Source: Fimicolochytrium jonesii
Taxonomy: Eukaryota
NCBI RefSeq assembly: GCF_025526975.1
Contig: NW_026515673.1
Coordinates: 62,001 to 126,000, forward strand
DNA length: 64,000 nt
Direction of reading: 5' to 3'
Shown: piece after piece, positions 27,452 to 64,000 of the stretch
Numbering within the stretch: position 1 is the first letter of the stretch
Layout of the letters: each line of letters opens with the position of its first letter
Translations under genes and position numbers: made by a program
Notes under the pieces: model-generated
The model's database searches: none
Seen by the model: only the letters and a program-made list of their open reading frames with translations
Told to the model about the DNA's origin: nothing

Positions 27452-28235
27452 GGGTAGATGTTGCGACGATGCCCTGCCTTTCTCCCTATCGCTGCATAGT
27501 TGGGAGTTTGAGCCAGTGCGAACGCAACCGGACCTCGTATAAGTCCGGCTCGTGCCCGACATCGAGTGGAGCACCACCTCTTAGGGAGTTCCCAACTTTT
27601 TGATGCCGCCATCCATGCGTCGACTACGACATTCTCCCCCAATGGCGCTCACATGGCCTGTCCTTGAGGCAGCTTCGCCTAACAACATTTCGATAGCCAC
27701 ATGTTTTCACGTTCTCTCCGCGCGTACATCCATTAATCACCGCCACTTCAACTTCCGTCCAACCTCCCGCTCATAGAGACGAGATACGTTCACACCCTTC
27801 CTGTACCTTTTTGTCATTTTTGGATCATTCAGCATATTGTTCTTCACCCTCAACCTGTTTTCATATGATACCCCGGCTTTGCACTTTTGCTCTGCTTCGA
27901 TAATGTTCTACCTTCTCATGTCTATGTAATTCATCTTTTGACTGCTTTGAACCATGGGTTGTTTATATAGTGTCATCATTATTGGCCGTGGTTTACCTAA
28001 TGTCGAAACTGTATACCGCTAGATCACATTCACGTTGCTCCTTTATGGACAGTTTACCGGCAGACATACAGGAAGCCCCTTCTTCCAGAATCAGCTTCTG
28101 GTCGGTTTCATCCTATATATTATCGATAGAGCTCGACGTCCTCCACTCAACATCGATGAATGTGAAGCTAGGTGTGAACGCCGGCTCAGCCTCTCTTTCA
28201 CACTTCGGACAATAATGGCCGGTTTGACAGACGTA

Positions 28236-29602
28236 CAGTCAGTGGACATAAAGCTGTGTGCATGCCAGATTAAGTCAGTGTCTGACGCGCGTTGCGCGAC
28301 ATCAACTCATCATCCTTAATCTTGGGGCATTGCGAAACCTGACCTAAATGAATGGATCTAGATCTGAATTTTGCTAATACCTAGTTGTCCCCCCATTGGC
28401 TGCGATTACGGCTGCCATGCTTGATGGCATTGACCGTGTCAATGCATCAAGATGCGGCTGCATTGTGGGCCATATAGTTTGCACAACGTTGTCCAACATT
28501 CCAGGGGTAGGGTTCGCTTTCGATACCTTCCGTTTGAGCATTGCCCACAGATTCTCAATCGGATTGAGATCTGGACTCTGCGCTGGCCAGGGAAGAAGCT
28601 CAATGCCGTGTTCATCAAAGAACTGTCGAGTTTCAGCCGATGTATGAATAGGGGCGTTGTCCTGCATGAAGAGAGGATTGGGAAGAAAAATCTCTAGATT
28701 CCGCCACATCGGCAACATGTTAGCAGTAAGATGTTGCACATAGGCAGTAGAGTTAATCCCTCCACGGTTTTGACCCTCTCGCTGAACACGCTGCATCTCT
28801 TTCATTGGACCTACTGCATTTCCAATGAATGCTCCCCAGTACATGAATGTTTTTTGTCCACTCTTCCTGGTGCCCTGGATGCAATCGGGATGAAAACGTT
28901 CAGTTCGTAAGCGCCAGCACCGCATTTTAGGTACCCAGCCAATTTCAAAGGACGTCTCATCAGTCCAGAAAACACGAGACCAGTCCGCTTCCATCCAGTC
29001 TTGGTGCTGCAGTGCAAATGCAAGGCGTGCTGCTTTATGGTCCTCTGTCAATAGTGGCTTTCGGACCTTGAAACGCGAGGTGAGATAGAGCAGGTCCCGT
29101 AGGTAGCGACGCACTGTTTTTGCAGACACCTGGAGTCCGGTGAGCTGTGTGAATTCAAAAGTGATCTGTTTTAGTGTTTTCTCCCGAGTGCTACTGTCAG
29201 CAACGACAATACTGCGGAAGGCAGCCAAATCATCGTCAGAAGGCTGGTACTTAGCTGGTCTTCCTGTTGGCTTCTTCGATTGATAGGCGGTTGGTGCAGT
29301 GGCACTCTCGTTCGCAAACCTCTTAATAGTGTTCCTCACAGTATTCCTGTGAACGTGCTCCTGCCTTGCAATTTCAGATGTCGTCTTGCCTGCTATATGG
29401 AGGGCAACTATGGCTGCCCTTTTTTGTGGTGTGAGAGGTTTCCCCATAGCTGAGGTGGTGAAGATGTTGGCGTGCATTTCGCCATCACGGCTTCGTCGCT
29501 GGCTTCAATACTCAAGCTTGCGGCTCCAAAACGCGCGGTGCGCTTTGTGAAACGGTCATTGAAATCCATATGGGGTGCACACAGCTTTTTGTCCACCGAC
29601 TG
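28236..29602 (-). mobile_element. Complete Tc1-family DNA transposon (1367 bp) with 27-bp TIRs and TA target-site duplication
   Basis: Left end TA|CAGTCAGTGGACATAAAGCTGTGTGCA (28236-28262). The right end reverse-complements to TA|CAGTCGGTGGACAAAAAGCTGTGTGCA (2 mismatches). TA at 28234-28235 and 29603-29604. Confidence 0.95.
28374..29447 (-). CDS. Tc1 transposase, DD34E, intact ORF
   Basis: N-terminal HTH, TGRP, KPLLTEDHKAARLAFA, WTDETSF, FMQDNAPIH and WPAQSPDLNPIENLW, with 34 residues between the second D and the E. Confidence 0.96.
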   Translation of the reverse strand: MGKPLTPQKRAAIVALHIAGKTTSEIARQEHVHRNTVRNTIKRFANESATAPTAYQSKKPTGRPAKYQPSDDDLAAFRSIVVADSSTREKTLKQITFEFTQLTGLQVSAKTVRRYLRDLLYLTSRFKVRKPLLTEDHKAARLAFALQHQDWMEADWSRVFWTDETSFEIGWVPKMRCWRLRTERFHPDCIQGTRKSGQKTFMYWGAFIGNAVGPMKEMQRVQREGQNRGGINSTAYVQHLTANMLPMWRNLEIFLPNPLFMQDNAPIHTSAETRQFFDEHGIELLPWPAQSPDLNPIENLWAMLKRKVSKANPTPGMLDNVVQTIWPTMQPHLDALTRSMPSSMAAVIAANGGTTRY

Positions 29603-31272
29603 TACTTCCCATTTATGGAGACATCTCGTTCCTTTTCTTTTTTCCGGCATTTTCTCATGGTGTGTGCAGACTGAGTCTCATTGCCATCGTCATCATAATT
29701 CATAAGACCCCCCAAGTCTTGAAGACCAGCCAGCGACAACGATATGCATCAGAACAAAACCTATCCCCAAGAATTGGTCGGACATATGCTTGTCTCATAG
29801 TTTTGTGAAGTATTGTCATCATCGCATAACGTTGTCACTTTGGCAAGGTAGCGCCTTTCGTGTCATATACGTGAACAAAGCCCGACGGGAAGAAAGGCCC
29901 TTTTCGCGCATGTTGACGCAGATGCGACGAAGAGACGGACACCGGCGCTTTACCCTTTGATTGCCTTATGCAGAGGAATATCGAACCTGAGATGCAGAAC
30001 GAAATAAGGGAGTAATGGTAAGTGTTTGCTTTCGAAAACGTTTACCACGAAGTCAAATACATTGACGGTGATCAGTTTTGGCATGAATGTATAGTAGTAG
30101 TTTTTTTCAGCATCGAGAAACTCGAATCTGACTCGTCATCTAGAGTTCATCAATTCACCCAAGAGTCCGCCGGCATAGGAGCCCGGTACTCACCATTCAG
30201 TAGGCCTTGATAACGGAACCAACGACGGGTGTAGCGATAGAGAATCTGCCGATGATGGGAAGACATGATGAGTATGCGCAAACCGGCATATCGTCGAACA
30301 TAACAACTGGATTGGTAACCATCAGCTATGCACTAATCTACATAATGTTTCAGTGCCCAGTGCTAAAGGCGTCGCCATAATGTCAGTTAGGCGACGCCAT
30401 CACGCGGCTCCTTCCGGTTGCGTTGTGTGAGATGGAGGCTCTTACTCACCACTACTGAGAGAACGACGAACACGAACGTCGAAAGCGGGATGGGGGTAAT
30501 AAGGCAAGCCTATCGAGCAAAAGAAGATCGATAAATAAGATGATTCTAGATGGTCAGACGCAATCAAAACCATTCCGTGGGAGCTCAGTAATCCTTTTTC
30601 ACAGCAGGATGCATCAGACGGTAATTCCATTTTGCGTAGTTGTTTGCCAGGATAACTCATCTTCGCTGACCCACGGAAGGCAGACATTGATATCAAAACG
30701 CACCTTATTCTCACATCCCTCGCCCAAACCGTTCGAGGACAGCACTCTTGATGGATCCAAACGATGCCTGCGCACGGAGACAGTGGGTTAGATTGGAGCA
30801 CAGGCAAAGGTACATGAGAGCCGAGAGAGCTCTGCCAGGATGCCAGGAAGTTCAGAGACGCGACTATCGTCATTACCCTTATTGGGTTTGGAGACTCTAG
30901 TTTGTATTGATCTTGTCATGGATCATCAAGACGTCGCTCGCAAGCTGGCAGGCTAGCCGGTGGCGGCAAACAAACAACAACAATGACCTACCATTCTGAG
31001 TGTTGAGCCGAAACAGCTAGCTGTGAGATTGCGGAGAGTGGTGTGGGAATGTCTAGGGAAATCAAAAGTTGGAAGCGCCTTTTTGTAGTGCGCGAGAAAT
31101 GAGGGAAGTGGCGCAGCAAAGAAAAGATGTGGCGTTGATGTGGCCCAGTGTTGTTAGCCTGGGTAATCAATTACGTACGCACACAAACGCGACAAACGCG
31201 TCAAGAGAGCACGTCGCACGAGACTTCGAACAGCACTTCAAAGTTTCAACTACCATATCCATTGAAGACAAT

Positions 31273-56173: not shown

Positions 56174-56706
56174 TTCGATGCGTGTTCTGCGGATTGTGAA
56201 CTGAGAAGCCGAGGGTGCAAGGTTGCAACTTTAGTGTATGAATTTTGAAGGGTTGGCTCGAAATACGAAGGGAAAACTGGGGTGGTTCCAATAGGTGTCT
56301 TGCATGGCGTCGGAAGGCGTCGGCCTTGGGGCTGACATTGCTTACGTACGCATTGGAGCCCGGAAGCGCACCAAGGTCATTCTCCAAGCGGGTCAGGATG
56401 TCCCGATCCCCATGCGCAAAAAACTCCGAGGATGACAACTTCGCCATCAGGCTTCCCACAAAACTGTTGTGGAACTCGTTGCTTTAATTCTCGTTCACAC
56501 ACACCACTCGTTTTATAGACATTCGATCGGACGGTCTGCACACACACACACCAGCTTTCTCTCTGCAGAGAGGAAAAGGGGGGGGTACGGTAACTATAAA
56601 AGGAAGCTGTGGCTGAAACAGGTTGATACAGGTTTTTTACAACACTCCCTCTCAGACTGCAGATCGAATTCAGTCGCAGTCACAGTCGCAGTCGCCGTCG
56701 CCATGC

Positions 56707-56922
56707 ATCGTTCGAGACAGCTTGGAATAGGGGCAGGCTCGCGATTCACTCTTCACGTCACGATCGCTTCGAGACCAGCTTGGAATAGGGGCAGGCTCGC
56801 GATTCACTCTTCACGTCACGATCGCTTGAGGTGCAGCCTGGATTTTGGGCACTCGCGGTACGCTCTCTCGACTTCCCAATCGCTTGAGGTGCAGCCTGGA
56901 TTTTGGGCACTCGCGGTACGCT
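56707..56922. repeat. Minisatellite of four related ~58-bp units (A-A-B-B')
   Basis: Units start with ATCG(C)TT at 56707, 56763, 56821 and 56879. The A copies are near-identical, the B copies are identical over 44 bp, and A and B align with each other. Confidence 0.9.
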
Positions 56923-57408
56923 ATCAACTTCCGTCATCGCTTCGCCGTCGTAGTCGTGGATGCCTCGGTAAAAACCTCTCCCAGGTGTAAAAACCTCCGT
57001 GAGGAAAAAAAAATAGATCCTGGGAGTAGGAAAAGAGCGCATCGTCGTATCAGGCAACATCGGCTTTTCAGCGTACTCGTCGTTATCAAGCAACAGTCAT
57101 CACCGCCGCAGCAATTCGAACGACTCGAAATCCGACCGAGAAAAGTAGAAGAATCCTCAACGGCGCCAACTGTGATGCTGGCGCCAACGGTGATGCCGGT
57201 GCCAACGTCAATCCCGCTCGCACAACCCCTTTTTTTTCCCGAACGAGCCGCGCATCCTTCAGTGGCGCGCGCCGGACGCAATGTACCCATTTTGCGGTTT
57301 TTTCCCCATTGGCATTGGCGACATTCACGCCGAGGCCTCCGATCTACACGATACGACGACGAACGCGGCTCAATCATCGACAAATAAGCAACCTCCGAAT
57401 GAAGTCCA

Positions 57409-57880
57409 TTGTGCTTTGGACGAGGAACGTAGTCCTCTAGAGTCTATGGACGAGGAGGAGGTTGCTTACTATCCCACCTCAACTACCCACCGCACTAAGC
57501 ACCTCCTCCTCACGCCGCATTCGCCGCATTCGCCGCTCAAACCGCATCGGTTTATTTATCAGCATCGCCTTCCACGGCGCAATCAACGACTACGCAAAGG
57601 TTTTACGGGTTTCCCTGGACATTAAGTCCTAAATGCGCTGCTCTGCGCGCTGCGGAGTAGCGTTCCCGAATAGACAGCTCATCTTCATCGACCATCCCTC
57701 CCTCCCACCGTAGCGTTCAGTCATAGCACTCGATAGCTCAAAAGAGATAAGGGAAAGGGAGCTATACGCACCGCAATCTGTTATTTATGCTGTCACTCGA
57801 GAAGGAAAATAGAGAAGCTTAGTAAGACCATAGACTCGTCCATAGACTCTAGAGGACTACGTTCCTCGTCCAGAGCACAA
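57409..57880. mobile_element. 472-bp non-coding element bounded by 46-bp inverted repeats (MITE/foldback-like)
   Basis: 57409-57454 (TTGTGCTTTGGACGAGGAACGTAGTCCTCTAGAGTCTATGGACGAG) is the reverse complement of 57835-57880 with one mismatch. No clear TSD. Confidence 0.7.
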
Positions 57881-58036
57881 AGTTCGCCTGCGGCAGCCCA
57901 GGGCTCCAAAGGCGCGCGCGAGAGTGCGTGGCCCCTCTCTAAGTTATTACAAGGCTGGCCTCGGCGGCGTTGCCGCCTCTAATATAAGCGACGGAAGGCA
58001 GGTCCAGAACAAAGGCTCTAAGTGAAGGCTCCAAGT

Positions 58037-58124
58037 CCGGCCTTACACCCATCACGCCCGGCCTTACAGCTTCACGCCCGGCCTTACACTGCATACATGT
58101 ACAGCCTTCACGCTCGGCCTTACA
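58037..58124. repeat. Four copies (one partial) of TCACGCCCGGCCTTACA upstream of the Fanzor gene
   Basis: Copies at 58037 (partial), 58052, 58072 and 58108. Confidence 0.85.
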
Positions 58125-58462
58125 GGAAGACTGTGACCTGTACTGTACAGTAGACGCGCGGCCTAAGGTTCCTTCCTTCCCAACCCCATTCTTTCCCAAC
58201 GCAATTGCGAGCAGATCTGTACTCGCCGACCACCACCAGGTAACAACCGCAATTCCTCACCGTTCTCAGCTTCATTACCACAGCACTGATGCAAGTTCTT
58301 TGACAAACAGCTACCCACAGCTTTCACGGCAATCACCTGCAACACATGTACACACACCAGTTATCTCGGCTGCGGGCAATCTGACCTCAACGCATCCACT
58401 GTGGTTGAATCAGGTTGTTCTGCTAGAGTGGTTCTCAACCGACATCATCTCTAGCAGGCATC

Positions 58463-61199
58463 ATGTCATCACACCAGGCGCTCCAGGGGCACCTGTGGTG
58501 TGGCTTCTTTACCGGAGTTACCACACCACGGCGGAAGAGGAGGAAGGTTACTCCGGTTACCCCGCGGTTGCCCATACGTCTGCCAACCGCTGTGCAGACA
58601 CCATTGCAACCCCCGCGATTCGAGTTCCCACCTTCTGTCCATCGCCACTTGCCCCAAGCAATTGCAGACATGATTAGGGAGAGTTCCGGCGAGAGTTCCG
58701 GCGATGAAGACGGGCAGCAGCACCAGCAGCGAGGGCTTTCACCCGTGGACAGGGGTCTGCAGCGTCCGTTGAGCCTCCCCGCTCCCAATCCTTTCCTTTT
58801 TCCCAGCACACCGGGCGGATCCCTGGTGTATGAACCACCACCACCACCGCCACCACCACCAGTTCAACGACCCCGCCCGCAGACACATGCCAGCACCAAG
58901 GTTTCGCTTCACCGAATTCATAATCAAAATCAAAATCAAGTTCAGAGGGAGCGCCTGACAACATTCATCGGCAATGTTCACGTCCTTGCGCGCCACACCA
59001 CCTTCTTTCTCAAGTACTACCTTGGTGAGTTTTTGAGGTACACTGCAGTGTATATTTCCCATAAAACAATGTCCTGACTACTACAATGTCCTGACTACTA
59101 CGTCTGCCCACCACAGCTGATCATCCTCTACACGATTTCCCGGACATCACCGACAAGCACATCAGTGTGATATTTGAGCTGCTAAATAACCCAGGCTACA
59201 ATGGCAATCCAGTCATCGCGCAAGAGTTACGTCCACGGGTTCAAGACTACTGTGATGTTCACGGATTCGCCCCCATCCGCATGCGGAATTGCCAACAGAC
59301 CGCAGCGTACACGGCTACGTGCATCCTCACAAACCTCAAAGTCAACGTACAAGAGCATTTCATGCAAATGTTTCTGCGCTATGTCAAAGAAAGGATTGGT
59401 TTGGAGCAAGTCATACTGCATCTCCGGAGAGCGCAGCGGCGACACTATTATCGGCGTGTGCGTCAATTTACAAAGTATGCGACGTTTGAAGAGTTTACAA
59501 CCAAAGAGGAGTTTGCGCGCCTCACACGACTTGAGTGGACCGTCCTCAATGAGTTATGGGCTCTGTTTCCTCCCCAGGATGAGCCGCTTGCGTACAGCCT
59601 TGCGGTGGACGCAATGCCATATTTAGGTGAGCTATGTCCCGTACATTTACCTCCCCCTCCCCCCCCCCCCTCCCCCCTGCGGCTTCCTCTTTTGTCTAAT
59701 CATGGTCAGCACCTGCCCTCGTCACAGGTGCCTATTGTGAGCTCTCACGCCTCTATGAGTGCCGTGGAATGCGGCTGTTTTCGGCCATCCCGCCGCGCAA
59801 ATCTCGAATCCAGTCATCTGTTCGGATCGACATAAAGATCCTAGCCACTCATATCCTGGGCTTGACCCACCGTCGCATGAGGAAATTCACCGATGAACGC
59901 AAGCGGGAGCTGTGGGGGCAGTTTCTCAATGTGAATGTAAGTCTCTATCCTTCTGCGCTTATTTCAATCACCTCACTGAATGACCGATTGCAGGACAAGA
60001 TCTTCAAGCATCGAAAGAAGCTTGGTCTCAAGTTCGATGGGTCAATCAGCACAAACGGGTATTCCGTTACCATCCACTTCAAGAAGCCAGGGCTCAAGTA
60101 TGGCCATCAGGCGCGGAAGCGCAGCCAGGCCCAAATGCGGGAAGAAGTCAACCAGCTGTATTTTGAGCACCACATTGCCGAACTAAGGGACGCTTCAAAC
60201 ATCATCAGCATTGATCCGGGCAAGCGTGACCTCTTGTTCTGTTGAGACATCAAGAAGGAGCGACCATTTCAGTACGTTTCAGTGGATTACTACTTTTGAC
60301 ATTCCGTTGCACCGTCCTCACAATGCACCACCCCATATCAGATACACATCCAATCAACGGGCGGTCGAGACAAAGTCTCGGTACTTTCAAAGAGACATGA
60401 CAGAGCAAAAGATCAATGCGGGCATCGCTGAGATGGAATCACATATTCCGTCGCACAAGAGCATGAACATCGAGGCGTTCTCAGCGTTCATTGTGGATTA
60501 CGAACATGCAGGTATGATGTTCTACTTCAACTTCAACTTTCAACTTTGGTAATACATGGGCTGACATCCATATCCCAGATCCCGCCCTGGATGAGTTTTA
60601 CCAGGATGAGATTCACGTGGCTCGCAGATTCAAGGCGTTCTCACTGCGGCAAAAGTCTGAGAGCAAGCTCATCAAGAACATGCGACGCCTGTATGGAAAG
60701 CATTTTGTGGTCATCTTGGGTGGTTGGAGCGACGCTGGAAAGACCATGCGCTTCCAGGAGTCGTCAAAGACCAAAGGGGGAGTGACTATCATTGGTACTA
60801 TGTATTATAATATGCTAACTCATCATGGAAATCAGACTCCGCACACTCTTCGCAAGAAACAACATTCCATGTTACTTGCTAGATGAGTATCGAACGTCCT
60901 CCGTGTGCCCGGACTGCCACGGGCGTGTGAAGAAACACATCTGACGGCGGCCGTCATCTCGGCCGTGGCAAGCTAGAAAGGGAAGAATGGAATACGTCCA
61001 TGGATTGGTGGGTTGCCCCAACCCCGAATGTATCAACCAAGACTGGACGCCATTTGAGATTCCTGGAAGACGACCACTACGGATGAAAGTGCACAATCGG
61101 GACATCCTAAGCACCAAGAATTTCCTCTCGATTGTGCGTTCGGTGGTGTTTGGCAATGGCCGCAGGCCAGACGCAATGACCAGACGCAATCTCCCGTAA
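58463..61199 (+). pseudogene. Fanzor1 (eukaryotic TnpB-like RNA-guided RuvC endonuclease), 7 exons, with disabling lesions
   Basis: Exons 58463-59024, 59117-59626, 59728-59936, 59994-60271, 60342-60511, 60579-60777 and 60836-61199 join in frame (about 763 aa). Motifs: FDGSISTNGYSVTI, RuvC-I ISIDPGKRDL, YTSNQR, VVILGGWS, LLDEYRTSSVCPDC, VHGLVGCPNPEC and RuvC-III HNRD. There are in-frame TGA codons at 60243 and 60942, and the last intron donor reads GG. Confidence 0.92.
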
Positions 61200-61320
61200 C
61201 CGGTAGTCTAGAATTTTCACCGCATTCCATTTTCCGTGGTGGTTATCTGCCATCCACATCATTGTACCTCTGCCTGAGGCGTCGCCGATGATGGCAACTT
61301 GTATTCCTGGAGCCTGGAGC
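61200..61320 (+). ncRNA. Candidate Fanzor omegaRNA region (boundaries unknown)
   Basis: Lies immediately 3' of the Fanzor stop, where omegaRNAs are encoded. Hairpins at 61236-61257 and within 61263-61303. Inferred from position and structure only. Confidence 0.45.
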
Positions 61321-61995
61321 GCTTCCGTTTGAAACGTACTTTAGCCCTCATCGCTGTTCTCAAGGCTTCTGGACCCTCCAAAAGCAGCCTTATGTGGAGT
61401 CATCTCTCGATGTAAGTTTCACCATCGCTGGATATTTTGCCACAACATCGGCGTTCATACGGACACTCGGCAATCCTTCGACGTCAGTGTATCACGACCT
61501 CATCAAGCCGAGTCCTATCCCGATCGGCTACATTGATCTCCTCCTCCTATCTTCGGCGTCGCACCCGAAAACATCGAAGAAGATACCTCGAGTAGAGAAT
61601 ACTCCAGAGTACAATCACAGCTGCAGGTCAAGGGAAAAGGATGGAAAGGCCCCGACGTATATGGAAGCTAGTTGAAAATGTCCAAGACGTCACTGTCTAC
61701 TCCGTTGCTGGTCAACTGAAGAGCTTGGGTAGACCTTACAATAGGAGCACCTAGAATATGTTAAAGCCACCAACACCTACAAAGTCCGGCGACCATCACA
61801 GGCACGACGGAGAAGATAGATCCCATGATTCGAAAAGAGTATCTGGGGGAACAATCCAAATCCCTTCATGGGCCTAGGAGCGTTTACATTGTACCCCGTG
61901 TTCAATGGGCAGGATGGCCACAGGTACTTGGGTATAACGACGACGGACCACCGATGTACCTCTGCCTGAGGCGTCGCCGATGATGGCAACTTGTA
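61263..61995 (+). repeat. Exact 41-bp direct repeat (61263-61303 and 61955-61995)
   Basis: TGTACCTCTGCCTGAGGCGTCGCCGATGATGGCAACTTGTA is present twice, 692 bp apart. Confidence 0.95.
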
Positions 61996-62417
61996 ACGAC
62001 GACGGAACACAAGGTCGTGCAGTCTTCCGCTGCCGCTGCTCAAGGACGTGTAGATTGGATACATTGCCAAGGGCCCAACTGGTGGGAGCTACGCTAGACT
62101 GCCTACAGCTATATACATACGCGGCATCCAAGGGGCCTTCTCCATAACGATAGGTTTGCGGAATCCTTCGACCACCTGTCCTGTTCCATCCCCAACAGTG
62201 CAGGACCGTTCAGAAATCATTGAAGAAATCTGACTGAACGAGCGTCGCGGAGCCTTCATGCCCAACAAGAGTGGTGTGAACAATGTTAAAACACGCCTGG
62301 GTGACTCACTGCTGTTCCCGCCCCCTGCTCTTTTCCCCAGGTGGACTTTCGTTTTTTTCTCACCCCCGTCCCACGATTCCCACTTTCCCATCCACCCCAT
62401 ACTCCTCAATAACGGCC

Positions 62418-64000
62418 ATGGCTGCCGCTGACCAAGATAACGGCTGGCGGTTCGCCCAGTGCTTCGGCGATAAAGGCGATGTCGAAGACGTCACAGAAGG
62501 TAAATCACCCCGCTGATCATCACGGAAAGCGGCCCGCGTGTTTCAATATACTTATTACTCAACTTCCTTCCTTCCCCCATCTAGCCGATATCATATCCGC
62601 GGTCGAGTTTGATTCCACTGGCGACTTTCTTGCGACCGGTGATAAGGGCGGAAGGATAGTCTTGTTCGAGCGGAGTGAGGGGGTGCGTTTCGTTCAATTT
62701 GGGAAGCGGCGACCCTAGATTCTGCTTAGAGGGGGCGAGCCTTATTTGCTATGAGGAAGCATGAGCAATGCGTGGGGTGGCCGCGAGGGAAGCAAGCGAA
62801 TGCGACTGTCTGTAGCAAGCGGATCAAGGTGCAGGGACGCTTGAGGCTGGCGAGCCGTAGGCGAGGCATTGGTTCGCGAGCGGACTAGCGAGCGAAGCAA
62901 GCAATAGATGTGAGCGGCAGGGAACGGTCGTGGTGTAAACGCGGCGGAGCTGCCGTTCCTCTTCAACTGCGAGCGGCCGCGAACGGTCGCATTTAGTCGT
63001 GAGCGATGTTTTATCTCTGCGGTCTCATCGAAATCATTGGCTGACGTCCACCCATCGCGAATTACCCTCACAGAAGAAGGGATGCGAATACAAATTCTAT
63101 ACAGAGTTTCAGTCTCACGAGCCCGAGTTCGACTACCTGAAAAGTCTGGAGATCGAGGAAAAGATCAACAAGATTCGGTGGTGCAGACGCCAGAACGCTG
63201 GGCATTTCCTCCTCTCAACCAACGGTATGAATCACCAATTCGCAGATGCCTCAAGCTTTTGTGTGATCGAGTCCTAATTGCTCCGAATAGACAAGACGAT
63301 CAAGCTATGGAAAATCTTCGAGAAACCACTAAAGGTCGTTTCCGAGACAAACCTCCTGGTAGACGCGACCCCCGCGCTCGGAGGAAACCTGACGAGGTCA
63401 TCTCTCAAAATGCCCCGCCTGATTCATCACGATACCATGATCGCTGCCGTCCCGAGAAAGATATACCAAAACGCGCACGCATACCACATCAACTCGATTT
63501 CGGTCAATTCGGATGGGGAGACCTTCCTGTCGGCTGACGATTTGAGGATCAATCTGTGGAATCTGAATGTGTCGGATCAGAGCTTTAGTACGCGTTGGAG
63601 TGCAGCTTAGCTCTCGAGGCGCGTCGCCGGCATGCTTATCTTCTACGAATTATAGATGTGGTGGACATCAAGCCTGTGAATATGGAGGAGTTGACGGAAG
63701 TCATAACGGCCGCAGAGTTCCACCCGTCGCAATGCAATCTGTTCGTTTACAGCAGTAGCAAGGGGACGATCAAACTCAACGACATGAGGCAGGCCGCCCT
63801 TTGCGATAAACATTCCAAGTGTGAGTTTGTGTGTGACAGCTATCGCAAACTAGCGACCGCTCGGGCTAACCGGTTTGGCCGTTGATCGGACAGTGTTTGA
63901 GGAGGAGGAAGATCCGGCAAACAAATCCTTCTTCTCAGAAATCATATCCTCGACATCAGACCTCAAATTCAGCAGAGACGGGCGATATATCCTGTCGAGG
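62418..64000 (+). CDS. CDC55: Protein phosphatase 2A regulatory subunit B55, 3'-truncated by the window edge, multi-exon
   Basis: [66 protein letters not shown] and [21 protein letters not shown]. Confidence 0.98.

Follow-up and report, generated by a model that had tools for sequence, protein, structure and literature searches.

Why does the 3′ end of a Fanzor element recur, without its gene, several hundred bases beyond the element itself? In the stretch of 64,000 nucleotides from Fimicolochytrium jonesii that was analysed here (the window), a 41-bp unit lies shortly behind the end of a Fanzor gene at 61263-61303 and returns at 61955-61995, with 100% identity and a spacing of 692 bases; there is no third copy elsewhere in the window. 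An earlier note on this DNA had pointed out both the exact duplication and the different 3′ flanks of the two copies, and these observations hold. It had offered two readings: either the unit is the 3′ end of an omegaRNA scaffold or of the transposon and the locus encodes two guides (a mini-array or a ghost omegaRNA), or the unit is the flank that donates the guide and copy 2 is a matching target.

The Fanzor1 Pseudogene

The gene in front of copy 1 resembles SpuFz1, the Fanzor1 of Spizellomyces punctatus. It was delimited by exon matches to SpuFz1, by the tiling of related proteins and by intron ends, and its features are as follows.

58463..61206, + strand: Fanzor1 pseudogene, SpuFz1-like, about seven exons
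60243..60245, + strand: in-frame TGA, Arg in sibling proteins
60942..60944, + strand: second in-frame TGA, Arg or Gln in sibling proteins
61167..61190, + strand: 11-nt repeat with a 13-nt period that shifts the last codons

Two of the exons, with stops read as X, match SpuFz1 (8GKH) with E-values of 5e-30 and 6e-15. Thirteen proteins among 42 candidates are longer relatives of the last exon; all are named Fimicolochytrium jonesii, are 67–92% identical, and tile 58463-61184 over about seven exons. Judged by sequence, the family probably has many copies in its host. The RuvC motifs are recognizable in the window as IDPGKRD, DEY (within DEYRTSSVC) and NRD, with the E situated six residues before the zinc finger, and homology together with the D, E and RD motifs places the gene in the SpuFz1 clade of Fanzor1. 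The reading frame is not intact in this copy, which has the two TGA codons, a terminal frameshift and probably a lost splice donor near 60778. All three RuvC motifs are kept in a sibling protein, P0007. A proline-rich N-terminal extension of about 135 residues (58463-58900 in the window) is found in the family proteins and is absent from SpuFz1.

The end of the gene requires a correction. The TAA at 61197-61199, formerly taken as the Fanzor stop, is an artefact of the frameshift caused by the local 11-nt repeat; sibling proteins end in PDAFSRNR, which places the stop of the family at TAG 61204-61206. The repeat was recognized by comparison with sibling proteins and with one contig, from a public DNA run (X1), in which an unduplicated gene end is joined to the scaffold.

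Several other features surround the gene. An inverted repeat of 46 bases (57409-57454 and 57835-57880; 98% complementary, 380 bases apart, no obvious end duplication) is a small foldback element upstream of it. Tandem repeats with units of 58 bases (56707-56909) and 20 bases (58037-58089) also lie upstream and could be part of the left part of the element. Farther away, a 41-base inverted repeat (28230-28270 and 29568-29608; 85% complementary, 1.3 kb apart) is possibly another small transposon. A gene for a PP2A B55 regulatory subunit begins at 62418, about 420 bases after copy 2.

The omegaRNA Scaffold and the Right End of the Element

The region between the family stop and the end of copy 1 can be read against the scaffold of SpuFz1.

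61229..61303, + strand: predicted 75-nt omegaRNA scaffold, ending in TA at the right end of the element
61236..61257, + strand: stem 1, a bulged hairpin at the position of SpuFz1 stem-loop 1
61263..61303, + strand: 41-mer copy 1, equal to bases 35-75 of the scaffold (by the numbering of SpuFz1, the stem-2 module)
61304..61318, + strand: predicted guide of copy 1 (right flank)

Both scaffolds are 75 nt long; compared by eye and without gaps, 20 of the first 36 bases are identical, and TTTTCCG at bases 2-8 and the terminal TA are common to both. In the SpuFz1 scaffold the linker occupies bases 29-34 and stem 2 begins at U35 (PMC10432273), so that the 41-mer corresponds exactly to the stem-2 module.

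Folding adds little to this comparison. The bulged hairpin described before is present in the minimum-energy fold and does begin 37 nt after the TAA at 61197-61199, although that codon is not the stop. The two small hairpins proposed within the 41-mer also appear in predicted folds, but the first pairs CCUC with GAGG and the second contains a C-A mismatch. Folding energies are within chance (z = -0.84 for the 41-mer and -1.17 for 61228-61303), and none of six folds, with z from +0.59 to -1.17, is better than its shuffled controls; the case for an omegaRNA structure thus rests on homology. A UGUA/UGUA closing stem, of the type found at the base of SpuFz1 stem 2, is possible on paper and has a pair probability of 0.0 in free-RNA folding. 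A search of Rfam gave four weak matches, all far under the thresholds.

The right end of the element was located with contigs from run X1, of which the region makes up a small share. Of 16 contigs matching 57000-62600, 8 were examined, as were all 5 of those matching 61170-62220. In all three contigs that reach the scaffold end, agreement with the window ceases immediately behind CTTGTA; two of the three form one consensus with an agreement of 0.7 and are not separable. This divergence sets the right end of the element at 61303. Including the two in the window, no fewer than four different flanks follow the scaffold end, so that a conserved scaffold lies behind the stop and reaches the end of the element, and a variable flank comes after it. 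These findings support the proposal that the unit forms the 3′ end of the scaffold and of the transposon, since conservation drops exactly there and the sequence aligns with the SpuFz1 scaffold. The opposite proposal, in which the unit donates the guide and copy 2 is its target, is refuted because it is the unit that stays constant, and the sequence following it that differs from case to case. On these grounds, copy 1 is the ordinary right end of a Fanzor1 element with its predicted omegaRNA scaffold. In X1 the contigs are deeper over the scaffold than over the gene, depth not being equal to copy number, and they leave the flanks of copy 1 and copy 2 uncovered. Two further contig matches were set aside as probably due to chance, one at 57158 (an 18-base tandem repeat) and one at 62126-62164 (7 differences in 39).

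The predicted guide of copy 1 has no match of at least 12 of 15 bases elsewhere in the 64-kb window. No inverted match above background, of the kind expected for a Spu-1 type left inverted repeat of about 30 bases, was found in 56300-58470 or in the window, and no TATA followed by a remnant of the first guide was found upstream of the Fanzor gene. The TA at the right end may be a duplication or part of the element end. The element ends in CTTGT(A) (CTTGT at 61298-61302), and the CRe elements of Chlamydomonas also end in CTTGT, possibly by chance. Given this end and the lack of a left inverted repeat, the carrier might be Helitron2-like rather than mariner-like.

The nearest described system is Spu-1/SpuFz1 of S. 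punctatus (PMC10432273, PMC3627910, 8GKH), to which homology extends over nearly the full length of the protein (sibling P0012 versus 8GKH, E = 1.5e-133). The two share a 75-nt scaffold of the form xTTTTCCG...TA, the order of stem 1, linker and stem 2, and a four-base motif ending in ATA, putative in the present family. On the other hand, Spu-1 has a single open frame, whereas the window Fanzor1 has six introns; Spu-1 carries inverted repeats and none was found upstream here; stem 2 contains two small hairpins here, unlike that of SpuFz1; and the window copy is a pseudogene. Pattern scans of other collections gave one chance match of 20-23 bases in metagenome contigs, without scaffold or Fanzor, zero and one match in viral contigs, the latter by chance, and no match in genome contigs; protein scans of the viral contigs gave no relative.

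Copy 2 Lies within a Duplicated Target

Copy 2 is framed by a direct repeat of 13 identical nucleotides, at 61935-61947 and at 61994-62006, which the earlier note had missed. A further TA precedes the left repeat copy, giving TATA at 61933-61936.

61933..61936, + strand: TATA, putative target-adjacent motif; the same four bases occur at a second scar
61935..61951, + strand: left target copy, TA plus 11 exact bases (to 61947), 14 of 15 matching to 61951
61948..61954, + strand: junction of 7 bases
61955..61995, + strand: 41-mer copy 2, a 5′-truncated right end of the element
61994..62010, + strand: right target copy, TA plus 15 bases, which a full element inserted here would have as its guide

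The order is therefore TATA, the start of the target, an altered junction, the 3′ part of the scaffold, TA, and the target again. The actual guide-target match at this locus is between the 15 bases behind copy 2 and the 15 bases behind the TATA in front of it; with 14 of 15 bases identical, it is the best in the window besides the sequences themselves. Of 63,750 positions in the window, 83 carry a 13-nt repeat at comparable spacing; they form seven groups, and four of the other six lie within or beside the repeat families D1-D3. Among the 2,225 positions where such a repeat would start with TA, only two have one, the bracket of copy 2 included. Within the junction, CCAC is compatible with the target, at one mismatch, as well as with the 3′ arm of stem 1; the three bases that follow agree with neither. 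The 8-mer 61947-61954 also has a match on the opposite strand at 61140, in the end of the gene, and it occurs by chance at 63175. A derivation of the two target copies from paralogous coding sequences (ITTTDHR and VTTTEHK in one frame) was considered and rejected, since the flanking frames have no homologs in Pfam, PHROGs, two word searches, a full representative search or the Atlas.

Copy 2 begins at scaffold base 35, and the sequence in front of it agrees with bases 1-34 at 10 of 34 positions; it is thus not a whole 75-nt scaffold without a gene, as a ghost omegaRNA is. In SpuFz1, U5-C7, stem 1 and the linker, all within bases 5-34, make most of the contacts to RuvC and NUC (PMC10432273). 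By this comparison, copy 2 should be unable to load Fanzor and inert as a guide RNA.

A second scar of the same layout was found in X1, at another site. Contig 4 contains CCTATA followed by 10 bases, then the linker minus two bases, scaffold bases 37-75, and the same 10 bases again. It is one of the five contigs matching 61170-62220, a single contig of 151 bases from one study. The inserted scaffold starts at base 35 in the window and at about base 28-30 in the contig, in both cases at the border of stem 1 and stem 2.

TATA stands at both scars and at 120 of the 2234 TA sites of the window (5.4%). The motif of SpuFz1 is CATA, and its cuts fall 16-17 and 20-21 bases past the motif (PMC10432273), with cut sites described as flexible (PMC11423790). 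The C pair of CATA is contacted by R96 and R291 of SpuFz1 (PMC10432273); by our own count on the alignment, P0012 and the window both have G and H in place of these residues, and P0007 keeps an Arg at the second place. The replacement of the two arginines fits a changed fourth base in the motif relative to CATA, and we infer from sequence that the motif of this family is TATA.

A Footprint Known from Chlamydomonas

Truncated copies of this kind have been described for the Fanzor1 elements CRe-1, CRe-2 and CRe-3 of Chlamydomonas reinhardtii by Bao and Jurka (2013), as 5′-truncated, 3′-intact copies with duplications of 7-19 bases after TTTT (PMC3627910). Copy 2 and contig 4 likewise have an intact 3′ end, a cut 5′ end and a duplication within this range after a motif. 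The footprint was counted at 150, 70 and 35 loci (about 255) for the three elements, against 1 of 200 for a sister element without Fanzor (PMC3627910). For the nine loci at which both ends can be seen, duplication lengths of 10, 9, 9, 12, 12, 12, 3, 19 and 11 bases were read, of which seven fall within 9-12 bases (PMC3627910 and its supplement), and the inserts range from 188 bases to the whole intron-containing consensus (PMC3627910). The likeness to copy 2 extends to the duplication directly after the insertion motif and, in some of the copies, to extra bases at the junction. The CRe elements differ in belonging to an alga, in having Helitron2 ends, the motif TTTT and inserts of 188 bases to kilobases, and in being mobilised by a different transposase; the inserts in the fungus are 41-46 bases.

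In the available text of PMC3627910, the cause of the footprint is left open by Bao and Jurka and the pattern is read as one-ended rolling-circle transposition, a reading that predates the knowledge of RNA guidance. A later account by Craig likewise treats the cause as unknown and suggests, very tentatively, that Fanzor and an HUH enzyme cut together at insertion; variable duplications are also reported there for Chlamydomonas Replitrons that lack Fanzor (PMC10288648).

Origin of Copy 2

We favor, at about even confidence, the explanation that copy 2 is the scar of an aborted, DNA-templated Fanzor homing event. One allele or chromatid would once have carried a member of the family at TATA 61933-61936, so that the omegaRNA of this member had the right flank of the site as its guide. 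An active Fanzor from elsewhere in the genome would have cut the empty allele 16-21 bases past TATA, as SpuFz1 does. The far end of the break, which would match the right flank of the donor, would then have invaded the filled allele and copied leftwards through the flank, the TA and the scaffold; the far end alone would match the filled allele without a mismatched tail. Copying would have halted at the base of stem 1, after which end joining would have connected the newly made end with the near side of the break, where 11-15 target bases remained. The repair would thus have copied only the last 41-46 bases of the element-bearing allele.

Homing of this type has precedents in bacteria, in which the guide of TnpB or IscB (IS200/IS605, IS607) matches the empty site and the cut drives copying from the filled allele. 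Those cases end in complete restoration, whereas a failed, one-sided copy is proposed here. In the available text of a 2026 review, restorative homing is reported as demonstrated for TnpB and IscB, and no homing experiment with Fanzor is listed (PMC13565253).

Several observations support aborted homing. The right end is the same in all three contigs that reach it, and the altered residues fit the putative motif TATA. The retained target lengths, 10 bases in the contig and 11-15 in the window, are within the cut range of SpuFz1; the same layout with TATA occurs at two different sites; and in Chlamydomonas the footprint is frequent at Fanzor loci and rare (1 in 200) in the sister elements without Fanzor. 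That the Chlamydomonas inserts reach from 188 bases to a whole element with introns points to a DNA template. Other observations argue against it. Only two scars were seen in the window and the X1 contigs, with no full-element allele at either, and of these the second comes from one contig, and the window Fanzor is broken. A fixed start at the motif, variable length and 5′ truncation are also the geometry of one-ended or target-primed insertion, and the variable duplications in Fanzor-less Replitrons weigh in the same direction. SpuFz1 works with 10-base guides, with a plateau at 13 (PMC10432273), so that the 14 of 15 match after TATA is perhaps still cleavable. The two scar starts lie within 7 bases of each other, which copying from DNA does not predict, and the distance of 692 bases from copy 1 is not explained by homing unless an earlier local hop is assumed.

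The strongest competitor, which we consider rather unlikely, is a one-ended insertion by a transposase. In such an event only the right end would be joined to TATA, the element would be cut off 40-50 bases in, and fill-in with strand displacement would duplicate 10-13 bases. An insertion of this kind works without a guide, and its local donor could be copy 1. The geometry is the same, copy 2 has an identical end 692 bases away, Bao and Jurka gave this name to the Chlamydomonas pattern (PMC3627910), and the Fanzor-less Replitrons show that variable duplications arise there too (PMC10288648). However, the Fanzor-less sister Helitrons, which use the same enzyme, leave the footprint at only 1 of 200 loci (PMC3627910), and the footprint recurs with different transposon ends. 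The end in the contig, which comes from elsewhere, is also identical over 39 bases, so copy 1 is not singled out as the donor.

Repair templated by RNA is improbable in our estimate. Here the far DNA end would be extended on the omegaRNA, first on the guide and then on the scaffold, by a polymerase or reverse transcriptase of the host, stalling at stem 1 and leaving a scaffold piece of 41-46 bases inside its own target. Both scars begin at the border of stem 1 and stem 2, and neither extends beyond the 75-nt RNA, but this is a sample of two. In Chlamydomonas, copies flanked by such duplications extend to kilobases and retain their introns (PMC3627910), and the match of 61947-61954 to the opposite strand at 61140 would require DNA, although this 8-mer also occurs by chance at 63175.

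A local templated duplication during ordinary break repair, independent of Fanzor activity, would suit the short distance to copy 1 and the several short tandem duplications nearby; we regard it as very improbable, since the end of the copy coincides with that of the element and TATA stands in front of it at two unrelated sites. Slightly less credible still is a 5′-truncated insertion by a LINE reverse transcriptase that copied a LINE tail or, in trans, the omegaRNA. Variable duplication and 5′ truncation are the textbook footprint of LINEs, but no poly(A) or repeat tail exists, the flanks following directly after CTTGTA; the unit runs on from the Fanzor gene end without a break and shows homology to the SpuFz1 scaffold, and no foreign guide stands behind the insert. 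Finally, the earlier suggestion that copy 2 is a second working guide, in a mini-array or as a ghost omegaRNA, can hardly be right: copy 2 does reproduce the scaffold 3′ end exactly, with another flank behind it, and shares with the ghost Spu-1 elements an omegaRNA sequence without a Fanzor gene, but those ghosts, of about 550 nt, have both inverted repeats and the whole working 75-nt scaffold (PMC10432273), whereas copy 2 has 41 bases and one end and lacks the parts (U5-C7, stem 1 and linker) that bind RuvC and NUC in SpuFz1.

Implications for Fanzor Biology

The footprint itself is already in print for an alga. What is new here is its occurrence in a fungal family of SpuFz1-like elements, at two sites and shortened to one RNA module, together with the explanation by homing. 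An explanation of such copies by aborted Fanzor homing was not found in the literature, although subscription papers, preprint supplements or the locus files of S. punctatus may hold one, or further cases. Were the copy templated by RNA, Fanzor would write its own guide RNA into its own cut, a natural form of cut-and-reverse-copy; even with a DNA template, the scars would document Fanzor homing in the genome of its host and account for the motif-anchored duplications that have lacked an explanation since 2013. If truncated right ends inside their own targets are scars of homing, each records a real cut, and the motif, the guide and the approximate cut position could be read from assemblies alone; the duplications at about 255 Chlamydomonas loci would gain a mechanism. 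Homing predicts three alleles per site, duplications no longer than the cut distance, and dependence on the nuclease. The role of Fanzor in its host genome would thus become testable from assemblies alone.
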